DNA of 64,000 bases, taken from contig JBDHHV010000017.1 in NCBI GenBank assembly GCA_039589195.1, forward strand, positions 11,237 through 75,236. The letters are read 5' to 3'. This DNA is from Gemmatimonadota bacterium. GTDB lineage: Bacteria; Gemmatimonadota; Gemmatimonadetes; Palauibacterales; Palauibacteraceae. The translations under genes were made by a program, and so were the position numbers. Positions within the stretch are counted from its first letter, which is position 1. Every line of letters begins with the position of its first letter. A model generated the notes under the pieces. That model saw nothing but the letters and a program-made list of their open reading frames with translations. It had not been told where the DNA came from and did not search any database. Shown piece after piece: positions 52,231 through 63,924 of this stretch.

Positions 52231-52653
52231 ATGAGAGTCTACATCAGGTTCCTCGCCCTGGTCCTGGCATGGTCGGGAGCGGGAGCGTCCACGGCACACG
52301 CGCAGGTCCCTGACAACACCGACGCGAGACCTTCCACACAGGACGGCATTTACACCCGGGAGCAGGCGCGGCGTGGTGAGGAGCTCCTTCGCGACGAGTG
52401 CTCCGCCTGCCACATGAATGCCTGGTTCGAGGGATCTTTCCTCCAGGCCTGGAATGGTGCGACTGTGGGTATGCTGTACGAGCGAATCCGCTCGACGATG
52501 CCCGAAGACCAGCCGAGTGGCCTCGAGAACCGGGAATACGCGGACATGCTGGCGTTCATCTTCGAGCTGAACGGAATCCCCTCTGGGGAGGAGGAGCTCG
52601 CCAGCCGGAAGAACGAGCTGGACAAGATTCTCATTCAGTGGAGGCAGCCATGA
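52231..52653 (+). CDS. Periplasmic monoheme cytochrome c
   Basis: Signal peptide, [16 protein letters not shown] heme motif, STMPEDQP (axial Met). Overlaps the PQQ dehydrogenase start (ATGA). Confidence 0.92.
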
Positions 52654-54633
52654 ACCGGGTGGTGCGCAGCAGCCGGTCCACCAGAGCCGTGCTCCCGATG
52701 GCCGCCGCCCTTCTGTTGGGTTGGGCACACCCCGCGGCATCGCAGCGTGCGGGCACCGAGAACGGCGAGTGGCGCTACTGGGGCGGGGACGAGGGCAGCA
52801 GCCGCTATTCGCCGCTGGATCAGATCGACGCGAGCAACGTCGGGGAGCTCGAGGTCGCATGGCGCTGGAAAGCGGCCAACTACGGCCCCGAGCCCGATTT
52901 CATCTACCGGGCCACGCCTCTCAAGGTGGGCGACAAGCTCTACACCGTCGCCGGTCAGCGACGCACCGTGGTGGCGATCGACCCGGCCACGGGCGAGACG
53001 CTGTGGATGTGGCGGATGAGGGACAATCCTCGCTGGCAAACCTCCACGAGAAAGAACTACGGCAAGGCAGTCGCCCACGCGGAGGTCGATGGCCGCGGTG
53101 TCATCTACACGATCACGCCCGGCTACTACCTGGCCGCGCTCGACGCCGACACCGGTCGACCCCTGCCCCACTTCGGGCTGAACGGGATCGTGGACCTCCA
53201 CCTGGGTCTGGGCGACTACGCGGTTCACCCGGACAGCGGGACGCTGGCGTACGGGGATATCACGGCGTCTTCCCCACCGATCGTGGTGAACGGGGTCGTG
53301 GTCGTGGGCAACTCGCACGATCGCGGATACTACCCGCGAAGAATCGAGAACATCCCGGGTAACATCCGCGGGTACGACGCGAAGACCGGGGCCCGGGGAA
53401 TACGGCCACGACACGTGGGAAGGCGACTCCTGGCAGTACACCGGGAACATCTCCGCGTGGGCCCCGCTGTCGGCCGACTCGGAGCGCAATCTCGTGTTCA
53501 TCCCCACCGATACGCCCACCAACGACTACTACGGTGGCGACCGGCTCGGGCAGAACCTCTACGGCACCAGCATCATCGCACTCGACGTCCGCACCGGGGA
53601 GCGGGTGTGGCACTATCAGATGGTACACCACGACGTGTGGAACTACGACAATCCCAACGCACCCAAGGTCGTCGACGTCACGATGGCGAACGGCCGCCGC
53701 GTCCCCATGGTAATCGAGACCACGAAGCAGGGGTGGGCGTACGTGTTCGACCGCGAGACCGGCGAGCCGGTGTGGCCGATCGAGGAGCGACCGGTGCCGC
53801 AGTCGGACGCTCCCGGGGAAGCCACCTGGCCCACGCAGCCCTTTGTCACCCGGCCCGCCGCGTTCGAGCACCAGGGGGTCATGGAGGACGACCTGATCGA
53901 CTACACCCCCGAGCTCCGGGCACAAGCGCTCGAGATCGCGCGGCAATATCGGATGGGCGGGATGTTCAATCCGCCTTCGCTGCTCGATCACCCCGACGGT
54001 ACGAAGGGAGCGTTTCACGCCCCCGGAGCGAACGGTGGCGCCAACATCCCGGGTGGCTCGTCGGTCGACCCGGAAACCGGCATCCTGTACGTGGCCAGCC
54101 AGCGTGGGCACACGGTGAGCTCGCTCGTGCCCGGAACGGAGTCGGAGCAGGCGTCTCCACGCTGCGCGCCGGCCGCGAGCTGTACGAGCAACGCGTCGTA
54201 TGTGTCGACGGGTCCGGGTGGGGTCGGTGGGCCACAAGGGCTACCGCTGCTCAAGCCGCCCTACGGGGCGATTACCGCGATCGACCTCAAGACCGGCGAC
54301 CAGCTGTGGCGCATCCCGAACGGAGACACCCCCGCGTCGGTGAGGGACCACCCGGCGCTCCAGGGCGTCGACCTGCCCAACACCGGAAAGCGCGCACACG
54401 CCAACATCCTCACGACCAGGACGCTGCTCTTTTATGGGGAAGGGCGACGCCAGGAGCCCTGGCTGCACGCGGTGGACAAGATGACCGGCGAGGAGATCGC
54501 CCGCATCGAGCTCCCTGCCACCACGAACACCGCACCCATGACGTTCATGCACGACGGCGTACAGTACATCGTGGCCGCCGTGGCGGGTGCGGGCGTCGAG
54601 GCCGAGCTGGTAGCGCTGCGCCTACCGGAGTAG
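52650..54633 (+). pseudogene. PQQ-dependent dehydrogenase (glucose/quinate DH-like, soluble), broken by a frameshifting deletion near 53390
   Basis: Frame A: [40 protein letters not shown]. Frame B: [47 protein letters not shown]. The usual WxFxTIP segment between them is missing. Confidence 0.85.
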
Positions 54634-55603: not shown

Positions 55604-55936
55604 ATGGCGAGAGCGAAACCGGACATGATCAAGGGGACCCTGGATATGCTGATCCTGAAGGTCGTCTCGCTCGAACCCATGCACGGCTGGGGGATCAGCG
55701 AGCGGATCCAGGGTCTCTCGAGCGAGACGCTGAAGGTGAATCAGGGCTCGCTGTACGCGTCGCTCCATCGCCTCACGCGCGAAGGGTGGATCCGCTCCCA
55801 CTGGCAGACTACCGAGAACGGGCGTCGAGCCAGGTACTATCAGCTCACGCCACCTGGAAAACGTCAGCTGGGCACCGAGGCCGAGCGCTGGCAACGGCTC
55901 TCGACGGCGGTCCACATCATCCTGGCGACCACCTAG
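55604..55936 (+). CDS. PadR-family regulator, acidobacterial (TIGR03433-like) subtype
   Basis: KGTLDMLILK, PMHGWGISERI, VNQGSLYASLHRL, TENGRRARYYQLT, E..RW.RLS.AV..IL. Confidence 0.93.
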   Translation: MARAKPDMIKGTLDMLILKVVSLEPMHGWGISERIQGLSSETLKVNQGSLYASLHRLTREGWIRSHWQTTENGRRARYYQLTPPGKRQLGTEAERWQRLSTAVHIILATT

Positions 55937-55953
55937 AAAGCGGGAATAGACAC

Positions 55954-58668
55954 ATGCGATGGATCCATGACCTCCTCTTCAGGCTCAGAGCGCTGCTCGT
56001 GCCGCGTTTGATGGAGCAAGAGCTGGACGACGAGATCCGTTTCCACCTGGAGATGGAGGTCGAGAAGCTCGTAGGCCAGGGGATGGGAGAGGACGAGGCC
56101 CGTCGGCTGGCTCTCAACCGTTTTGGCGCGATCGGCCGGCAGAAGGACCGAGCCCGCTGGTCCTGGGGTGTCGGGCTCGCGCGTGACCTGCAGGCAGATG
56201 TACGGCTCGTCGCCCGCCAGATGAGACGGCACCCCGGGTTTGCCGCGGGTGCCGCCCTCACCCTCGCGCTCGGCATCGGCGCGAACACCGCGATCTTCTC
56301 CATCGCCGATCAGGTGCTTCTCCGCCGCCCCGCCGTGGATGATCCGGACCGGCTCGCCGCCATCTACACGACCTGCCGCCGGGGCAGCGTCAGGTGTTCC
56401 TCCTCGTACCCCGACTTCGAGGACTACCGCGACCTTTCCCGCAGCTTCCTCGACATGGCCGCGTACAGTCCGGTACCGCTCAACGTGGGCGACCCCGAGG
56501 CCGCGCGGCTGGCGACCGGACTCCTGGTGACGGGCAACTACTTCGGACTGCTCGGAACCCGCATACACGTCGGGCGATCGATCCAGCCTTCCGACAACGA
56601 GACGGGTGCGCCCGCCCGTGTGACCGTCCTCGCGCACGGTTTCTGGCGCGACGCGTTCGGCTCCGACTTGGGGATCGTCGGCAAGACGGTGCGGTTGAAC
56701 GGGGTATCCTTCACGGTCGTTGGAGTCGCCACGGAGGGCTTCCGCGGATTGGATTTGAACGTGACGCCCGATCTGTGGCTGCCGATCCGCTCGGCCCGAG
56801 AGTTGGGACCCGCGGTCGGAGGCGCGGGAGAGGCGGACGCTGCCGAGAATCGGGGAATGCGGTGGATCGGCACGCTCGTCGGAAGACTGGGGCCAGGCGT
56901 GACGGTCCAGCGGGCGAGGGCGGATATGGATGGGCTCGCGCTGCGGTTGGGTGAGCAGTTCCCGCAAGAGCGAGCCGCGATCGACGGCGTCCGCGGGATT
57001 ACGGTCGATCCGGTGCGGGGCTACCTGCTGCCGCGTGGCTCCGAGGCCAGCTTGAAACGCTTCGTCTGGATGTTGCTCGCGGTCGTCGGTCTCAGCCTGC
57101 TACTCGCGGCGGCGAACCTGGCGAATTTGTTGCTCGCGCGCTCCACGACCCGAGGGCGAGAGATCGGGATTCGGATGGCCGTCGGGGCCGGACGCTCGCG
57201 CGTCGTTCGCCAGCTGCTCACCGAGAGTCTCGCCCTCTCACTGATCGGAGGCACCGCCGGTCTGCTGGTTGGGAAGCTCATGCTCGGGCTGCTCGGTGCC
57301 TTCCAACTTCCTGGAGCCGTCGCGATCGGCGACCTCGAGGTGGGGCTCGACACGGGCGTGCTGTTCTTCGCGCTCGGACTGTCGGTGTCGACGGCCTTCC
57401 TGTTCGGACTCGTCCCGGCGCTCCAGACGACCCGGCCGGACCTCGTGAAGGCCCTCAAGGGTGAGGTCTCACGGCGGCTCGGGAACCAGGGCCGATTGCG
57501 ACGATCCCTCGTAGCCGTGCAGATGGGCCTGTGCGTGGTTCTGTTGGTCGGATCGGGCCTCTTCATCCGGACGCTGCGAAATAGCCTGGCCACGGATCTC
57601 GGCTTCACGCACCGCTTCGTGACCACGGCACGGTTCAATCTCTCGCTCCTACGTTACTCCGAGGAGCGTGGGGTCGCCTTCGTAGACGAGCTACTCCGCC
57701 GGGTCAGGGAGATCCCGGAGGTGGAGGAGGCCAGCGTGTCGACTCTCGTCCCGTTCCAGGGCGCCGGCTTCCGTGGAATGTTCGCCGATATCGGGGGCTA
57801 CGAACCGGCACCCGACGAGGAGATCCGCCTCGACTACGTGGTGGTCGAGCCCGGCTACTTCGAGACCCTGGGTATCGGACTCGTCGAGGGGCGTGCGATC
57901 AGCGAGCGAGACTTCGAGGGATCACCAAGCGTCGTCGTGATCAATCGACACATGGCCGAGCGTTACTGGCCGGATCGAAGTGCTGTCGGAGGATCGGTCG
58001 CGTTTGCCGGTGCCGACTTCGAGTTCGAAGTGGTGGGGGTCGTGGACGACCCCGTCTGGGCTGCCGTGGGCGAGGAACCGACCCCGTTCGTCTTCCTACC
58101 GCTGGCGCAGAGACCGAGCTTCTCGACGAGTTTTCTCACCCTGGTGGCTCGTGGGAGCGGTGACCCACGAGGATTGTCGCCGAGCATCAGAGACCAGTTC
58201 CTGGTCCTGGATCCCGATCTCTCTCTCACGGAACTCCGCCCGTTGAGTGAGCAGGTGGGTGACGCGCTGATGCCTCAGCGGATGGGTACGGTGCTTCTCG
58301 GCATGTTGGGGGGCCTGGCGCTGCTCCTGGCGGCGGTGGGCATCTACGGAGTGGTGAGCTACAGCGTCCGGCGCCGCGCACGGGACATCGGGATCCGGAT
58401 CGCGGTCGGGGCTTCCGCCGCGGCCATCCGTCGGACCGTGGTCCTGGAAATGGCCATCCCGGTCCTCGCGGGGCTGGTCGGGGGTGCGGCGGTCGCACTC
58501 GGGCTCTCGCGGACGATCGAGACGTTCATGTTCGGGGTCAGCCCCAACGACCCGCTCACGTTCGTCGCCATAACAGCTCTCCTCGTAGTCGTGGCGTTGG
58601 TCGCGACGCTGATCCCCGCTCGCTGGGCAAGCCGACTGGACCCCATGCGGGTCCTCACGGTCGAATAA
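55954..58668 (+). CDS. ADOP-type orphan MacB-like permease with 'permease prefix' (ELDDEIRFHL) N-terminal domain
   Basis: ELDDEIRFHLEMEVE...[60 protein letters not shown]. Confidence 0.92.
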   Translation: MRWIHDLLFRLRALLVPRLMEQELDDEIRFHLEMEVEKLVGQGMGEDEARRLALNRFGAIGRQKDRARWSWGVGLARDLQADVRLVARQMRRHPGFAAGAALTLALGIGANTAIFSIADQVLLRRPAVDDPDRLAAIYTTCRRGSVRCSSSYPDFEDYRDLSRSFLDMAAYSPVPLNVGDPEAARLATGLLVTGNYFGLLGTRIHVGRSIQPSDNETGAPARVTVLAHGFWRDAFGSDLGIVGKTVRLNGVSFTVVGVATEGFRGLDLNVTPDLWLPIRSARELGPAVGGAGEADAAENRGMRWIGTLVGRLGPGVTVQRARADMDGLALRLGEQFPQERAAIDGVRGITVDPVRGYLLPRGSEASLKRFVWMLLAVVGLSLLLAAANLANLLLARSTTRGREIGIRMAVGAGRSRVVRQLLTESLALSLIGGTAGLLVGKLMLGLLGAFQLPGAVAIGDLEVGLDTGVLFFALGLSVSTAFLFGLVPALQTTRPDLVKALKGEVSRRLGNQGRLRRSLVAVQMGLCVVLLVGSGLFIRTLRNSLATDLGFTHRFVTTARFNLSLLRYSEERGVAFVDELLRRVREIPEVEEASVSTLVPFQGAGFRGMFADIGGYEPAPDEEIRLDYVVVEPGYFETLGIGLVEGRAISERDFEGSPSVVVINRHMAERYWPDRSAVGGSVAFAGADFEFEVVGVVDDPVWAAVGEEPTPFVFLPLAQRPSFSTSFLTLVARGSGDPRGLSPSIRDQFLVLDPDLSLTELRPLSEQVGDALMPQRMGTVLLGMLGGLALLLAAVGIYGVVSYSVRRRARDIGIRIAVGASAAAIRRTVVLEMAIPVLAGLVGGAAVALGLSRTIETFMFGVSPNDPLTFVAITALLVVVALVATLIPARWASRLDPMRVLTVE

Positions 58669-58793
58669 TCATCAGGCGCTGTGGGACCGTGTGCGGGTTC
58701 TTGCGGCCGAACGACTCCGCCGCTCTCTTTGCGGAGTCCGCATTCAAGTGGTTCTTGCCGCTGTGTCCTGCCACACCCACAGGAGGTAGACGT

Positions 58794-59582
58794 ATGAAGA
58801 GGCTGGCTTCCTCGTTTCTCGTGGTTGCCGCACTGCTCGTCGCGGGAGTGCTTCCCGCGCAGGCCCAAGAAGAGGCCCCCACCCTGGTGTCCGTCGGTAC
58901 GCTGAGCGTCACCCCGGCCCACTCAGCACAGTTCGGCGAGCTGGTCGCGAAGGTGGTCGAGGCGGCGAAAATGTCCGATCTGGACGCCAAGTACAGGTGG
59001 GCGGTCTACCAGGAAGGCAACAAGTTTCGCTTCGTCACGTGGCCCGAGAATTGGGCGAGCCTGGATGACCAGGGTGCCTGGGTCCGTGAGGTCGGAGCCG
59101 GCGAAGGCGGCGCCATGATGCAGGAGGCGTTCGCCGAGTTCGAGGAGCTCTGGGTAACCTCGGAGTCGCACATGGCCGGCATGGTCGAGGAGTGGAGCTA
59201 CGTGCCGGAGGACGGGCTCCAGGCCGGCGACCACACGGGCGCCGTGGTCTTCCAGACGTGGGTCCGCCCCGGAATGGCCGAGGCGTACAGTGAGAACACG
59301 GCCGGCATCATGACGCTGATGGGGGAGATCGGCTTCCCCTACCCGATCTACGGCCACCGGGTGCTGCTCGGTGATGAGAACCTCACCTACTTCGTCGTGC
59401 TGCACGATGGGCTGAGCGACTTCTATGGCGAAAAGAGCTTCGGCGCTTTCATCGAGGCGGCCGGAGTCGGTGAGGAATGGGCCGCGCATTTCGAGGCCCG
59501 GAACGAGCTGGTCTACGCGACCGACACCTGGCAGTCCACCTGGCGCCAGGACATGAGCTACCTGCCGGACGACGGCTCGTGA
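58794..59582 (+). CDS. Secreted hypothetical protein, probable duplicated dimeric alpha/beta-barrel (NIPSNAP-like) fold
   Basis: AGGAGG RBS, signal peptide ending AQA. Two roughly 110-aa halves with alternating beta/helix pattern, each ending W.../TWRQDMSY-like. Confidence 0.55.
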   Translation: MKRLASSFLVVAALLVAGVLPAQAQEEAPTLVSVGTLSVTPAHSAQFGELVAKVVEAAKMSDLDAKYRWAVYQEGNKFRFVTWPENWASLDDQGAWVREVGAGEGGAMMQEAFAEFEELWVTSESHMAGMVEEWSYVPEDGLQAGDHTGAVVFQTWVRPGMAEAYSENTAGIMTLMGEIGFPYPIYGHRVLLGDENLTYFVVLHDGLSDFYGEKSFGAFIEAAGVGEEWAAHFEARNELVYATDTWQSTWRQDMSYLPDDGS

Positions 59583-59758
59583 CCTAGCCGCGTCGGCGCC
59601 TCGGGGTCCCACCTCGAGGCGACGGGTGTCGCCATACGAGGGCGAGGTCGCGACGCGCGGCCTCGCCCTTCTTCGCATCGCCATCCACAGCGAAGGAACG
59701 TCTGTCCCCATCCGGGCGTTGTTGGGTTGAACCAGCCACAGGAGACAGGAGGCAAGCC

Positions 59759-60196
59759 ATGAAGCCAATCGCGTCCGCCCTCGGTGTCGGAGCCGTCCTT
59801 TTCTTTGCCGCGTGCGGAGGAGGCGGCGGCGGTGGCCCGGCCGGAGGAGGCAACCCACCGCCCCCACCACCCCCACCACCGACTCCACCCCCGCCGGGAG
59901 CCAACGTCGTGATCGACATCATCGACAACGCGTTCGTGGCCCCGAACGGCGACAGGAACGATGACATCGAAATCACCATCAACTCGGGTGACACCGTCGG
60001 GTTCACGCATAACGGTGCCGTGGCCCATACGGTGACCTTCACCACGAGGGCGCCGGGTTCGACGGGGGCGACGAACTCAGGCACGATGAATCGTGGAAGT
60101 ACCCATTCCGTGACGCTGAGCACGCCCGGCACCTACGTGCTTCGGTGCGACTTCCACCCGGGCATCATGCGTGACGTCACCATCATCGTGACCTGA
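59759..60196 (+). CDS. Blue-copper (cupredoxin) lipoprotein with Gly/Pro-rich tether
   Basis: Lipobox FAAC, G7/P-rich linker. Type-1 Cu ligands AHTVT and CDFHPGIM (C-x2-H-x3-M). Confidence 0.88.
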   Translation: MKPIASALGVGAVLFFAACGGGGGGGPAGGGNPPPPPPPPPTPPPPGANVVIDIIDNAFVAPNGDRNDDIEITINSGDTVGFTHNGAVAHTVTFTTRAPGSTGATNSGTMNRGSTHSVTLSTPGTYVLRCDFHPGIMRDVTIIVT

Positions 60197-60270
60197 CGCG
60201 GCAGCCGCTCCCCCGGGTCGCGCGGGCATGACCGCACGACCCGGCCGAACGGCCCACCCGAGGACCGACC

Positions 60271-60741
60271 ATGCGAGTTCTGCATCCGCTCTTCGTGCAC
60301 CTTCACATCGCGTTTCTTCTCATGGCTTTCGCGTCCATGTACACGTGGCTCTTCCGTGGATTGGCGACGAGCGTGTTCGAGGACCGCCTGTACCGCTTCT
60401 CTCGCACGAATACCTGGCTGGGGGTCATCACCGTCGCGCTCTCGATGGTGTTCGGGGTTCGGGACGGGTTCGCCGGTTCGATCACGCGCTTCGACAGCGG
60501 CGTGGGAGGCTGGCTCGTGCTGAAGGTGGGACTCGCGGTCGTGTTGCTGGCCGTGTACGGGCTCTTCCTGTATAAGAGCGGGCGGAAGAAGAGCTACTTG
60601 CAGGAGGACCGACGGGTCATGCTCTGGTGCCTCGGTACACAGGCGGTCGGCATCGTCATCGTGGCGATCATCACCACGATCGGAACCATGCTCGTCTACT
60701 ACCAGGACCGATTGCCGGGCTTCCCGGGACCCCCGTGGTGA
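60271..60741 (+). CDS. DUF2231-like 4-TM membrane protein (putative heme b binding)
   Basis: LHPLFVHLHIAF motif, four hydrophobic segments. Stop overlaps the next start (GTGA). Confidence 0.65.
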   Translation: MRVLHPLFVHLHIAFLLMAFASMYTWLFRGLATSVFEDRLYRFSRTNTWLGVITVALSMVFGVRDGFAGSITRFDSGVGGWLVLKVGLAVVLLAVYGLFLYKSGRKKSYLQEDRRVMLWCLGTQAVGIVIVAIITTIGTMLVYYQDRLPGFPGPPW

Positions 60742-62009
60742 CCGCGAGGCGGAAGCCGGCTCGCGTCGCCATTTTGGGCGGTGGGTTCGGGGGCCTGTAC
60801 GCGGCCAGTTACTTGAGCGCGGCGGACCTCCCGGAAGACGCTGTCGAGGTGACGCTCGTTTCGGACGCGAACCACTTCACCTTCACCCCACTCCTCGCCG
60901 AGGTGGTCGCGGGCAACCTCGGCCAGGAGCACGTCACGGTGCCATATCGGGTCCTGGGGCGGCGTCGGGGATTCCGCTTCGTCAGGGGAGAGGTCGAGGG
61001 AGTCGACCCGAGGTCCGGGACGGCGTTCACGTCCGCCGGACCCGTACACTTCGACTACGCGGTCGTCGCGCTGGGGGCGCGCCCGCGGTACTTCGGCAAC
61101 GAGGAGCTACGGCGCGAGAGTCTTCCGTTTACATCCGTCACCGACGCGACAGTCATCCGCAACCGGATCCTGGAGGCGGCCGAGCGAGCCGATGCGGAGC
61201 GGAGTGCGAGCCGGAAGCGCCAGCTGCTCACGTTCGCGGTGGTAGGGGCGGGCCCGGCCGGTGTCGAAGTGGCCAGCGAGATCCTGCACCTGCTGACCGG
61301 CGTCCTTCCGCGCTACTACGATCTCGGGAGCGAGCCCCGGGTCATCCTGCTGGACGGGGGAGATCGGATTCTGCGCGGGTGGGATGAGGAGCTTGCCGCA
61401 CGCGGTCAGGATGAGCTTCGCCGGCGGGGGATCGATCTGCGGTTGTCGACCACGGTGGGTGGCTTCGACGGGCGGATCGTGACGGCGCGGGGGCCGGATG
61501 GCGACTCGACCCTCGAGGCCGGCGCGTTGATTTGGGCCGCGGGCACCGCCCCCGCGACGGGTGGTTGGGTCGACTCCCTCCTGCCGCGGGCCGCCTCGGG
61601 GCACCTTGCCGTGGAGCCAACGCTGGCGCTGAACGGGGCGGAGAACATCTTCGCCGCGGGGGATGTGGCTCGCCTGGCCAACCCTCGCACCCAAGAGCCC
61701 TACGCGCCCGTCGCGCCGATCGCGATCAGCCAGGGGGTCAGGGCAGCCGGGAACATCGAGAACTCGATTGCCGGCCGGCCGGTTGAAGAGTACCGGGCGC
61801 ATCACGCCGGGAAGATCATCTCGCTGGGTAGCGGTGTAGCGCTCGTCGACCTGCTCGGGCTACAAATCCGTGGCAGACCGGCGTGGATGCTCTACCGAGG
61901 CGCGTACCTGCTCAAGCTCGTCGGAACCAAGAACAAGCTCCGGACCGGTGTGACCCTGCTCTTGAACCGGATCTTCGAGCGGGACCTCAGCCTGGTAAGC
62001 GCGGACTGA
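60738..62009 (+). CDS. NDH-2-like (type II NADH dehydrogenase) FAD-dependent oxidoreductase
   Basis: ILGGGFGG, FTFTPLLAEV, VVGAGPAGVEVA, LIWAAG, FAAGD, SLGSG.A, W..YR..YL. Quinone-site motif reads APIAISQ. Confidence 0.88.
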   Translation: MTARRKPARVAILGGGFGGLYAASYLSAADLPEDAVEVTLVSDANHFTFTPLLAEVVAGNLGQEHVTVPYRVLGRRRGFRFVRGEVEGVDPRSGTAFTSAGPVHFDYAVVALGARPRYFGNEELRRESLPFTSVTDATVIRNRILEAAERADAERSASRKRQLLTFAVVGAGPAGVEVASEILHLLTGVLPRYYDLGSEPRVILLDGGDRILRGWDEELAARGQDELRRRGIDLRLSTTVGGFDGRIVTARGPDGDSTLEAGALIWAAGTAPATGGWVDSLLPRAASGHLAVEPTLALNGAENIFAAGDVARLANPRTQEPYAPVAPIAISQGVRAAGNIENSIAGRPVEEYRAHHAGKIISLGSGVALVDLLGLQIRGRPAWMLYRGAYLLKLVGTKNKLRTGVTLLLNRIFERDLSLVSAD

Positions 62010-62031
62010 GGGCGGCCGCTCGCGCGGGCAC

Positions 62032-63189
62032 CTACCCCTCCACCACCACGACGCCCTTCATGAACGGGTGCGGGACACAGTGGTAGGGGAATTCGCCCAC
62101 CGCGTCGAAAGTGTGCTCCCAGGTCTCGCCGGGACCGATCAGGGCGGAGCCCCAGTCACCATCGTCGGAGGTCGCGGTGTGACCCACCGGGTCCTTGTTC
62201 ACCCAACGCACGGTAGTACCCGCCGGAATGCGGATCTCCTTGTCACGAAAGGCGAGCTGGGACATCTCGACTTCCACGACACGCTTCCCGGGTGACTCCT
62301 GGAGGGCCTCGGGTGATCGTAGCTCATCCGGCTTGAAGATCTTCCCCCAGCGCGCGAAGCCGCTGAACGGGACGGTGAACTCGAATCCCCAGAAGACGGA
62401 CGCGCCGAATCCCTCGGGAACGAACGTTCCCGAGCCCGCGGATACTCCGGCCAGCGTCCCGCTCGTCACGTTCGTCGCCATGATCGAGAGGGTATGCGGC
62501 GTGAACGGGATCCCGAGGTTCAGGCCTGCGCTCCAGGCCACGTCCCCCTCCGGACCGGCGACCAGATCCGCGACATCCGCGGCGATCGTCACGTACCGGT
62601 TCACCTTGACCCCGATCCCCCCGGCGAGCGCCAGAGCTTCGTCGTCGACTCCGTCCGGGAAGTCGTAGATGTCCGAGAACCCACGCACCGCACCACTCAA
62701 CAGGACGGGGCCCGCGCGTGTCTCGGCGGCCAACTCGCCATCCAGGCTCTGCTTGGCGCCGTTCCAGGCCCCCGTGACCGCGAGCGAGAACAGACCGTCG
62801 CCGGCTCCGCGCAGGGGGGCGAACTTCACGTACGGCTGCCACTCGTTGATGAGGCGGGCCCCCGGCGAGTTGCTGCTGTAACGAAACCCCGCCATGGCAC
62901 CGTCGAAGAGCCCCACCGAAAGATCGAACGTCGGGTAGTTCACGATCTTCCCGTCCCCGCCGAAGATGTCGGAGATGTCCGCATCGTCTCCAGCCATCTC
63001 GAAGCGGTGCGCGAACTGGAAGTTCAGCGTTCCGGGCGAGGAGACCCAGGCGCCGGACAGGTTCGGCGTCCGCTCCGTCAGCGGCTGCGCGGGCGCGACG
63101 GAAGGGGCCGTAAGGAGCGTACCCAGCAGCAGAAGCGCCACTCGGCCGCCGAGACCGTGCGAGATCCGATCAGCGGGCGTCCTTTCCAT
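62032..63189 (-). CDS. Secreted beta-barrel (DUF5777-like) fused to a C-terminal amicyanin-like blue-copper domain
   Basis: Signal peptide, GTLNFQFAHRF and amphipathic beta strands, then AGTTVRWVNKD..GHTATS...YHCVPHPFMKG (C-x2-H-x2-M, as in amicyanin CTPHPFM). Confidence 0.75.
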   Translation of the reverse strand: MERTPADRISHGLGGRVALLLLGTLLTAPSVAPAQPLTERTPNLSGAWVSSPGTLNFQFAHRFEMAGDDADISDIFGGDGKIVNYPTFDLSVGLFDGAMAGFRYSSNSPGARLINEWQPYVKFAPLRGAGDGLFSLAVTGAWNGAKQSLDGELAAETRAGPVLLSGAVRGFSDIYDFPDGVDDEALALAGGIGVKVNRYVTIAADVADLVAGPEGDVAWSAGLNLGIPFTPHTLSIMATNVTSGTLAGVSAGSGTFVPEGFGASVFWGFEFTVPFSGFARWGKIFKPDELRSPEALQESPGKRVVEVEMSQLAFRDKEIRIPAGTTVRWVNKDPVGHTATSDDGDWGSALIGPGETWEHTFDAVGEFPYHCVPHPFMKGVVVVEG

Positions 63190-63378
63190 GCCGCGGCTCC
63201 TTTGTTCTCGGTGGGTAAAGCCCGTTCAGATGGGACGGGCCCTACTGAGAGAAGTCGCAGAGGGCGGGTGTGGTTCCTGGCAGGCTGCCGAAGAGCTCCG
63301 GTGCGGCCGCGCGCGGACCCACCTGCGGTGGGTGCCCCTCTTGCGGAGGTCAGACAAGGAACGAGGAGGAGTCGATGC

Positions 63379-63924
63379 CTACCTGGACCACGGAGGGACG
63401 ATGCCGTTCATCCGCGCGTACGCCACGGACTGCCCGACATGCTCGTTCATGTGGGAGAGGAGCTGGAACAGGACCGCCCAACCCGCGACCTCACGACCGT
63501 AGAGGATAGTGCTCGCCGTCAGATCCTTCTCGGTCATGCGGGTCACCGACTCGCGCACATGCTCCGTCGAGCGCTGGTAGATCTCGAGAACCCGGGTCTT
63601 GTCCATGATCGCCTCCAGCTCCGACATCTCGATCCCGTCCGGGACCGCGATGCCGAGCGAGGTATCGAGGTAGAGGTAGTTGTATCGGGCGAGGTGCATG
63701 TACACCTGCGCGATGTGCATCACGCCTTCCATCGGGCTCCACCGGTACAGGTCCTCCGGGACCGCTTCCGCCAACGCCATGATCTTGCCGCTCGACCGGG
63801 CAAAGTGCTGCAGGAACTCATCGCGATAGTCGGTGGGCGCGCTCTGGGCCTGGGCTACCTGAGCGGTTTGAGCCATCAGGACGAGAGCGAGGGCGAGTCC
63901 GCGCGCGTGTCTCGCGTAGGGCAT
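63379..63924 (-). CDS. Secreted DinB/YfiT-family protein
   Basis: Signal peptide ending AQA, LAEAVPE..Y.WSP, MHLARYN, HMNEHVGQ..AYARMNGIVPPWS. Confidence 0.88.
   Translation of the reverse strand: MPYARHARGLALALVLMAQTAQVAQAQSAPTDYRDEFLQHFARSSGKIMALAEAVPEDLYRWSPMEGVMHIAQVYMHLARYNYLYLDTSLGIAVPDGIEMSELEAIMDKTRVLEIYQRSTEHVRESVTRMTEKDLTASTILYGREVAGWAVLFQLLSHMNEHVGQSVAYARMNGIVPPWSR

Follow-up and report, generated by a model that had tools for sequence, protein, structure and literature searches.

Do four neighbouring genes for candidate electron carriers in a Gemmatimonadota genome encode one chain across the cell envelope, or do they belong to separate systems that have come to lie side by side? 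The question is raised by a stretch of 64,000 nucleotides (assembly GCA_039589195.1, contig JBDHHV010000017.1, positions 11,237 to 75,236; hereafter the window), in which three co-oriented genes (A, B and C) converge on a fourth (D). A preliminary description had proposed that their products pass electrons from NAD(P)H through a flavoprotein, a membrane heme protein and a periplasmic cupredoxin to a cupredoxin tethered to an outer-membrane barrel. Our comparison with related loci showed that this four-part chain is a local interleaving and not a conserved system. With modest confidence, we favor the explanation that two conserved and mutually independent envelope redox modules, B-C on the one hand and D together with A on the other, have become interleaved in this lineage; a relay is proposed for them below. 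The genes and the spacer, in window coordinates, are as follows.

59759-60196, + strand: gene A, lipoprotein type-1 cupredoxin, 145 aa (Pfam Copper-bind, E 2.5e-6)
60271-60741, + strand: gene B, four-helix DUF2231 inner-membrane protein, 156 aa (PF09990, 36.6 bits)
60738-62009, + strand: gene C, NDH-2-type NADH dehydrogenase flavoprotein, 423 aa (Pyr_redox_2, E 6e-36)
62010-62031, no strand: spacer of 22 bp separating the stop codons of the convergent genes C and D
62032-63189, - strand: gene D, outer-membrane barrel-cupredoxin fusion, 385 aa (AlphaFold2 (AF2), Foldseek; Copper-bind, E 4.7e-12)

Coordinates and gene features are those of the preliminary description, and its parts list (a copper lipoprotein on a Gly/Pro tether, a DUF2231 protein with four transmembrane helices, an NADH-type flavoprotein and a barrel-cupredoxin) is confirmed by Pfam, AF2 and PDB matches. 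The sequence likewise agrees with the overlap reported for the last two co-oriented genes, where the GTG start of C at 60738 forms a GTGA overlap with the TGA stop of B, and with the convergence on D at a distance of 22 bp. A promoter and terminator scan called no terminator-like site in the C-D spacer; the sole site in 59400-63500 falls inside D.

The four-gene set is confined to a small clade

The synteny of D was surveyed in 51 distinct loci, mostly metagenomic, 39 of which carry enough downstream sequence. The four-gene layout was found only in same-species assemblies and in one 90%-identical relative; B or C lies within 5 kb of D in that relative alone and in none of the 50 other distinct D loci. 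The expectation that the four genes co-occur as one unit was therefore not borne out by the survey. At 80% identity of D (L007 and L008), an orthologue of A faces D directly, with no B-C in between, D genes of 72% and 63% identity stand beside peptidase genes, and at 60% identity a small cupredoxin gene follows downstream. Altogether, a separate lipoprotein cupredoxin gene is next downstream of D in 19 of the 39 loci.

The step at which the layout changed can be followed in two relatives. One of them (L128, B 86% identical) has an A-type cupredoxin gene followed by B-C, and its left flank (zf-dskA and GFO oxidoreductase genes; 86–87% nucleotide identity) is the left flank of L007. From this common flank it follows that, in the history of this small clade, B-C entered or left the locus exactly at the junction of A and D. 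The relatives in which B-C separates A from D, and those in which it does not, hence constitute a natural experiment.

Gene A belongs to the cupredoxins that accompany D

59759-59812, + strand: signal peptide of A
59813-59815, + strand: lipobox Cys19 of A (FFAAC)
59816-59902, + strand: Gly/Pro tether of A, G20-A48, 29 residues (G7-PAGGGN-P9-T-P4-GA)
59903-60193, + strand: cupredoxin domain of A

The cupredoxin domain of A holds the full type-1 copper ligand set (H90/C130/H133/M137) with the loop CDFHPGIM and matches plastocyanin and amicyanin structures in the PDB (E 4e-7), with a score below the cutoff of the amicyanin equivalog TIGR02657 (33.2 bits, cutoff 110.2). Two features distinguish the cupredoxins encoded next to B from those encoded next to D. 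The former carry the loop CxxHEAAGM, with C-x2-H-x4-M spacing in 28 of 32 sequences, whereas the latter carry C[EDQ]xHPxxM, with C-x2-H-x3-M spacing in 23 of 25; the domain of D itself reads CxPHPFM across its family. Moreover, a poly-Pro tether is encoded by 11 of the 25 D-adjacent genes as opposed to none of the 32 B-adjacent ones, and together the copper loop and the tether form a signature that separates the two classes cleanly. In a maximum-likelihood tree, the D-adjacent and B-adjacent clades split at a support of 98/88, and A nests within the former (100/99, 100/95 and 99/94). The two B-adjacent cupredoxins of Methylomirabilia (CxxHPFM) group with the amicyanin-like type.

Judged by its C-x2-H-x3-M copper loop, its poly-Pro tether and its position in the tree, A is a member of the D-partner class and not of the usual B-C class. 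B-C has acquired cupredoxins of three non-orthologous classes in different lineages: most Gemmatimonadota have the CxxHEAAGM class, Methylomirabilia have the CxxHPFM class, and the poly-Pro class is found here.

B and C form a conserved module of their own

A genome scan for B yielded 54 loci, 49 of them informative, mostly from Gemmatimonadota, with several from Rokubacteria/Methylomirabilia and two labelled Gammaproteobacteria. Of the 49, 48 have C downstream of B in the same orientation (in one case as a remnant only), and in 29 of the 49 a lipoprotein cupredoxin gene adjoins the pair, in divergent orientation in 19, co-directionally in nine and after C in one. In the two loci labelled L029 and L043, the genes for the cupredoxin, B and C overlap (TGATG, ATGA), indicating translational coupling. 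That cupredoxin, DUF2231 protein and NDH-2 belong together, as had been suggested, is thus supported by recurrence and, in these two records, by coupling. Clustering of neighbouring open reading frames (ORFs) at both modules gave no further conserved family: the largest other clusters of real proteins span at most eight loci (sigma-54 activator, extracytoplasmic function (ECF) sigma factor, peptidases S58 and M48), and the bigger clusters that were left seemed to consist of overlapping frames that are not real genes.

The L029 record (NZ_BMXS01000015.1, 5561-7727) bears the name of a culture-collection strain, Litchfieldella qijiaojingensis KCTC 22228, and L043 that of Aquisalimonas. Their B proteins are 69–71% identical to the Gemmatimonadota protein, and the two operons stem either from horizontal transfer or from contaminated or mis-binned sequence. 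If genuine, the L029 record would offer a culturable test organism with B-C and a cupredoxin in an overlapping three-gene operon.

B exceeds the cutoff of DUF2231 (26.4 bits), as do all 33 aligned relatives, which are 70–89% identical. Its AF2 model (predicted local distance difference test score, pLDDT, 78) comprises four helices at residues 4–28, 34–68, 79–103 and 114–143. The only histidines, H5, H10 and H12 (60283-60306), all lie on helix 1 and are invariant in the 33 relatives. Since the K/R-rich loops 1 and 3 are placed in the cytoplasm, the cluster is predicted to sit at the periplasmic end of helix 1, and the cytoplasmic loops feature strongly conserved polar residues (S34-T48, L110-E112). 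When 1.84 billion representative proteins were searched with a profile of B, no more than 32 matched, most of them fragments, which marks B as an isolated DUF2231 subfamily. In one of these representatives (P0242), a glycosyltransferase-4 domain is apparently fused to residues 1–100 of a B-like sequence. DUF2231 is a widespread orphan family, for which C and the neighbouring cupredoxin are now candidate partners, one on either side of the membrane, that can be tested.

The role of a membrane heme protein, previously envisaged for B, did not hold up in the classical bis-His heme b form (cytochrome b561, MsrQ or FRD type), which we rejected because the histidines are restricted to one helix; as the other helices have none, such a site within one B subunit is excluded. 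Cytochrom_B561 and Cytochrome_B profiles matched B at E 0.16 or worse.

The closest solved relatives of C are the NDH-2 enzymes 9mqy (2e-42) and 4nwz (1e-40), which cover residues 6–403. C has two GxGxxG dinucleotide-binding folds and an amphipathic C-terminus; the NDH2_C profile is weak (16.7 bits, cutoff 27.7), as it is in the homologue of locus L010. Cysteines are absent from C, and its orthologues have zero to five unconserved ones. We therefore dismissed a sulfide:quinone reductase (SQR) or disulfide reductase, NDH-2 being the best match. At the position of the quinone site, C reads APIAISQ, with AP invariant in 46 sequences (C and 45 orthologues); the family motif VAP[IVL]A[ILV][S/N/R/T/H]Q has its final Q one position off relative to AQxAxQ. 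For NDH-2, the accepted variants of AQxAxQ are AQxAxR and APxAxQ, the last being a minority motif (PMC5299459). As APxAxQ is a known variant, the altered motif was dropped as a sign of a non-quinone acceptor.

D is a predicted barrel with a tethered copper domain

63088-63189, - strand: signal peptide of D
62365-63027, - strand: 12-strand barrel of D (AF2)
62281-62364, - strand: linker of D, residues 276–303, of low confidence in AF2
62035-62280, - strand: amicyanin-like domain of D (ligands H337/C371/H374/M377)

The AF2 model of D, built with 50 homologues (pLDDT 81), has twelve strands of 7–14 residues each between residues 55 and 275. Foldseek aligned this part to the 12-stranded outer-membrane barrels FapF, NanC and Tsx in the PDB (~1e-5), in line with the membrane barrel predicted earlier, and the C-terminal domain to amicyanin (1.5e-7, TM-score 0.73). 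The copper ligands are invariant in 50 sequences, with the loop CVPHPFM in D. His61 and His232 in the barrel are also invariant. The strands are connected alternately by long segments (14, 13 and 26 residues) and short ones of 2–6 residues; if the long ones are surface loops, both barrel ends and the copper domain would be periplasmic. No redox centre crossing the outer membrane is seen in the model.

The barrel may belong to DUF5777 (PF19089, "membrane bound beta barrel domain"), which scores 14.6 bits in D itself against a cutoff of 23.1 (E 0.019) and 32.7–36.6 bits, down to E 4e-9, in full-length homologues of 52–59% identity. At least 299 full-length members make up the D family, and the named ones are Gemmatimonadota. 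Amicyanin equivalog TIGR02657 gives 49.1 bits (cutoff 110.2), and a CopI profile matches weakly (E 0.0028).

In one locus with D at 60% identity (L004, 9810-15176), D and a cupredoxin gene are followed by an HSP20 gene and then by several large proteins with faint matches to multiheme cytochromes (MtrC/MtrF-like, cytochrome c3/c7); a sigma-54 activator gene lies upstream.

How the two modules could work

In the B-C module, an NDH-2-type dehydrogenase would be made stoichiometrically with a dedicated four-helix DUF2231 membrane subunit, and most lineages retain a periplasmic lipoprotein cupredoxin beside the pair. In the other, the amicyanin-like domain of the barrel, on a periplasmic leash of ~25 residues, would be paired with a lipid-anchored cupredoxin on a poly-proline rod. 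We propose that B-C came to separate A from D in an ancestor of the clade, whereby the D-type A would fill the slot of the usual cupredoxin of B-C. C could then oxidise NADH at the cytoplasmic face and reduce quinone at a site common to, or adjoining, B, which might dock C via its invariant cytoplasmic loops. The periplasmic His5, His10 and His12 of B could couple redox input to a blue-copper carrier, and A and the domain of D might act as a tethered periplasmic relay ending at the outer membrane. Whereas the gene identities, the folds, the synteny statistics and the class of A rest on the results given above, any flow of electrons between B-C and a cupredoxin, the direction of that flow and the substrates let through by the barrel are inferred.

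A large clade with NDH-2 and a conserved membrane partner, often accompanied by a blue-copper lipoprotein, suggests an unrecognised respiratory branch. Likewise, the barrel-cupredoxin fusion with its tethered partner might represent a phylum-wide, unstudied outer-membrane redox device of the Gemmatimonadota, which are abundant in soils and sediments. A literature search for DUF2231, DUF5777 and Gemmatimonadota with cupredoxin returned no description of either module and no mention of DUF5777, DUF2231 being named once in a single paper, and no NDH-2 with a membrane partner or barrel-cupredoxin fusion was found described.

Weighing the alternatives

Several observations weigh against two redox modules linked by a relay. 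On the side of C, the protein looks like a complete and competent quinone-reducing NDH-2 which, judging from its sequence, would not need a protein acceptor. Furthermore, 20 of the 49 B-C loci have no adjoining cupredoxin; the pair can stand alone, since these loci also have no CxxCH neighbour, i.e., no c-type cytochrome as an alternative partner, nor any other conserved neighbour. For B, no cofactor is demonstrable, and no solved structure resembles it: Foldseek against the PDB gave generic four-helix bundles only (best E 0.095). Its helices 3–4 match the QcrA_N profile at borderline level in 22 of the 33 members (best 27.5 bits), and CopD (PF05425) reaches 13.8 bits, below the gathering score of 32.1. 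Finally, no RNA runs containing the locus were found.

An unlikely alternative, though the most probable of those considered, draws on some of these points. B would be a mere membrane anchor or assembly subunit of a canonical NADH:quinone oxidoreductase, the adjoining cupredoxin would be respiratory equipment under common regulation that takes no electrons from the pair, and D and A would be unrelated neighbours. The two Rossmann folds, the AP-variant quinone motif and the amphipathic C-terminus retained by C fit such an enzyme, as do the loci without a cupredoxin and the likeness of helices 3–4 to the cofactor-less N-terminal anchor of QcrA. An idle neighbour is harder to reconcile with the recruitment of three different cupredoxin classes to one slot and with the overlaps of one and four bases that join all three genes in L029 and L043; pure anchoring also leaves the three invariant periplasmic-side histidines of B unexplained.

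Copper handling rather than respiration is an unlikely role for the locus, in which the three histidines of B would bind or move copper as in CopD, C would be a cupric reductase, and A and D CopI-like proteins with an outer-membrane copper channel. CopD matches, although always below threshold, occur in 14 of the 33 B members (best E 0.006), and the weak CopI match in D and the invariant His61 and His232 of its barrel point in the same direction. All CopD and CopI scores are, however, far under the curated cutoffs, and no gene for CopA, Cus, CueR or a multicopper oxidase was found in any gene-called neighbourhood. The sites of A and D have the complete electron-transfer set H-C-H-M. A Cu(I)-thiolate ligation has been proposed for E. 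coli NDH-2, and C is devoid of cysteine. A link with copper is reported for the E. coli enzyme, which is said to depend on the metal and to pass electrons on to it (PMC8689200).

We give little credence to a single chain specific to the clade, in which electrons would run from NADH via B-C to the three-histidine site of B (copper or a His/Met heme) and on to A and D, with the barrel admitting a small extracellular acceptor or donor, e.g., a metal ion. If true, it would be a heme-free, copper-only route from cytoplasmic NADH to the cell surface, and DUF2231 would constitute a new class of transmembrane electron-transfer subunit.

The weakest explanation is the dedicated trans-envelope chain from NAD(P)H via C and a heme in B to A and D, a copper analogue of MtrCAB delivering electrons outside the cell, which is very improbable: the close spacing of the four genes, seen here and among the nearest relatives, and the tethers of A (~29 residues) and D, which could span much of the periplasm, speak for it, yet the genes do not co-occur beyond ~90% identity, a relative keeps A and D without B-C, the histidines of B lie on one helix, and D is a 12-strand barrel like NanC, Tsx or FapF with its copper domain after the last strand and, by the loop/turn pattern, in the periplasm. 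The MtrCAB-like copper conduit of the preliminary description is not supported on these grounds. An MtrB- or Cyc2-like conduit was rejected as well, because the barrel of D is too small to hold a protein and the copper domain follows its last strand.

Neighbouring genes in the window

Apart from the locus, the sole cupredoxin- or NDH-2-like ORF of the window is a Pyr_redox ORF at ~1039-2259 on the + strand, of the pyridine-nucleotide-disulfide-oxidoreductase family, which matches C at E 7e-18. Elsewhere in the window, no further DUF2231 gene or cupredoxin was detected.

PQQ (pyrroloquinoline quinone)-dependent dehydrogenases can hand electrons to cupredoxins or cytochromes. The earlier statement that the usual amicyanin-type partners (amine dehydrogenase or nitrite reductase) are absent from the window is correct for methylamine dehydrogenase (MADH), which was found neither there nor in related gene-called loci, but it overlooks a frameshifted gene for a PQQ-dependent dehydrogenase, a possible cupredoxin or cytochrome donor, 5 kb upstream of A (52398-54633, + strand). 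Its coding sequence is broken into two frames; relative to the intact gene for a 671-aa PQQ dehydrogenase in a contig of the same species (L126, 98–99.5% identical), the window is short of ~32 nt near 53385-53390, and the split reflects either a frameshifted pseudogene or an assembly error. In other loci, the PQQ dehydrogenase gene is linked to neither module.

Directly upstream of A, an exported protein of 262 aa without a family match is encoded (58791-59582), which is kept in the 90% relative. Pairs of a PadR-family regulator and a MacB/FtsX-type permease occur within 55604-59582 and recur near both modules in several relatives (L006, L007 and L009); in the same-species contig L126, two copies of this pair flank the locus.

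Comparison with known systems

NDH-2, a drug target, is usually regarded as a peripheral enzyme with a single subunit. C resembles the canonical enzymes (Caldalkalibacillus thermarum 4NWZ, S. aureus 5NA1 and 9MQY) in its near full-length alignment and its dinucleotide folds; its C-terminus is amphipathic, and its quinone-site motif is close to the APxAxQ variant. It differs from them in being encoded directly after, and in overlap with, a DUF2231 membrane protein gene, often near a cupredoxin, and in the motif APxAx[S/N]Q.

In its logic, with an NAD(P)H flavoprotein in the cytoplasm and a small helical protein in the membrane that would together serve an extracytoplasmic redox protein or metal, B-C is reminiscent of Fre-MsrQ-MsrP of E. 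coli and of the eukaryotic NOX, STEAP and FRO reductases. MsrQ, NOX and STEAP hold bis-His b hemes on several helices, whereas B has histidines on helix 1 only and shows no detectable homology to these proteins (STEAP1, Foldseek E 0.93).

With amicyanin and plastocyanin, A and the domain of D share the cupredoxin fold, and D also the amicyanin loop C-x2-H-x2-M. Unlike these proteins, both score far below the equivalog cutoff, have no MADH nearby and are tethered to a membrane.

Among outer-membrane systems, Cyc2 has 16 strands and MtrB 26. As in Cyc2 (PMC8406198) and MtrCAB, an outer-membrane barrel is linked, covalently or tightly, to a carrier of single electrons, and a gene for a periplasmic carrier often lies alongside. 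In Cyc2, however, an N-terminal heme domain lies inside the barrel, whereas D has a C-terminal type-1 copper domain on a flexible linker, and its barrel, with 12 strands, is of another family (probably DUF5777). The overall architecture of D, i.e., an N-terminal barrel whose last strand ends in the aromatic, beta-signal-like GFEFTVPF, a flexible linker and a C-terminal periplasmic domain, resembles that of OmpA-type two-domain proteins, with a blue-copper domain in place of a peptidoglycan binder and 12 strands instead of 8.

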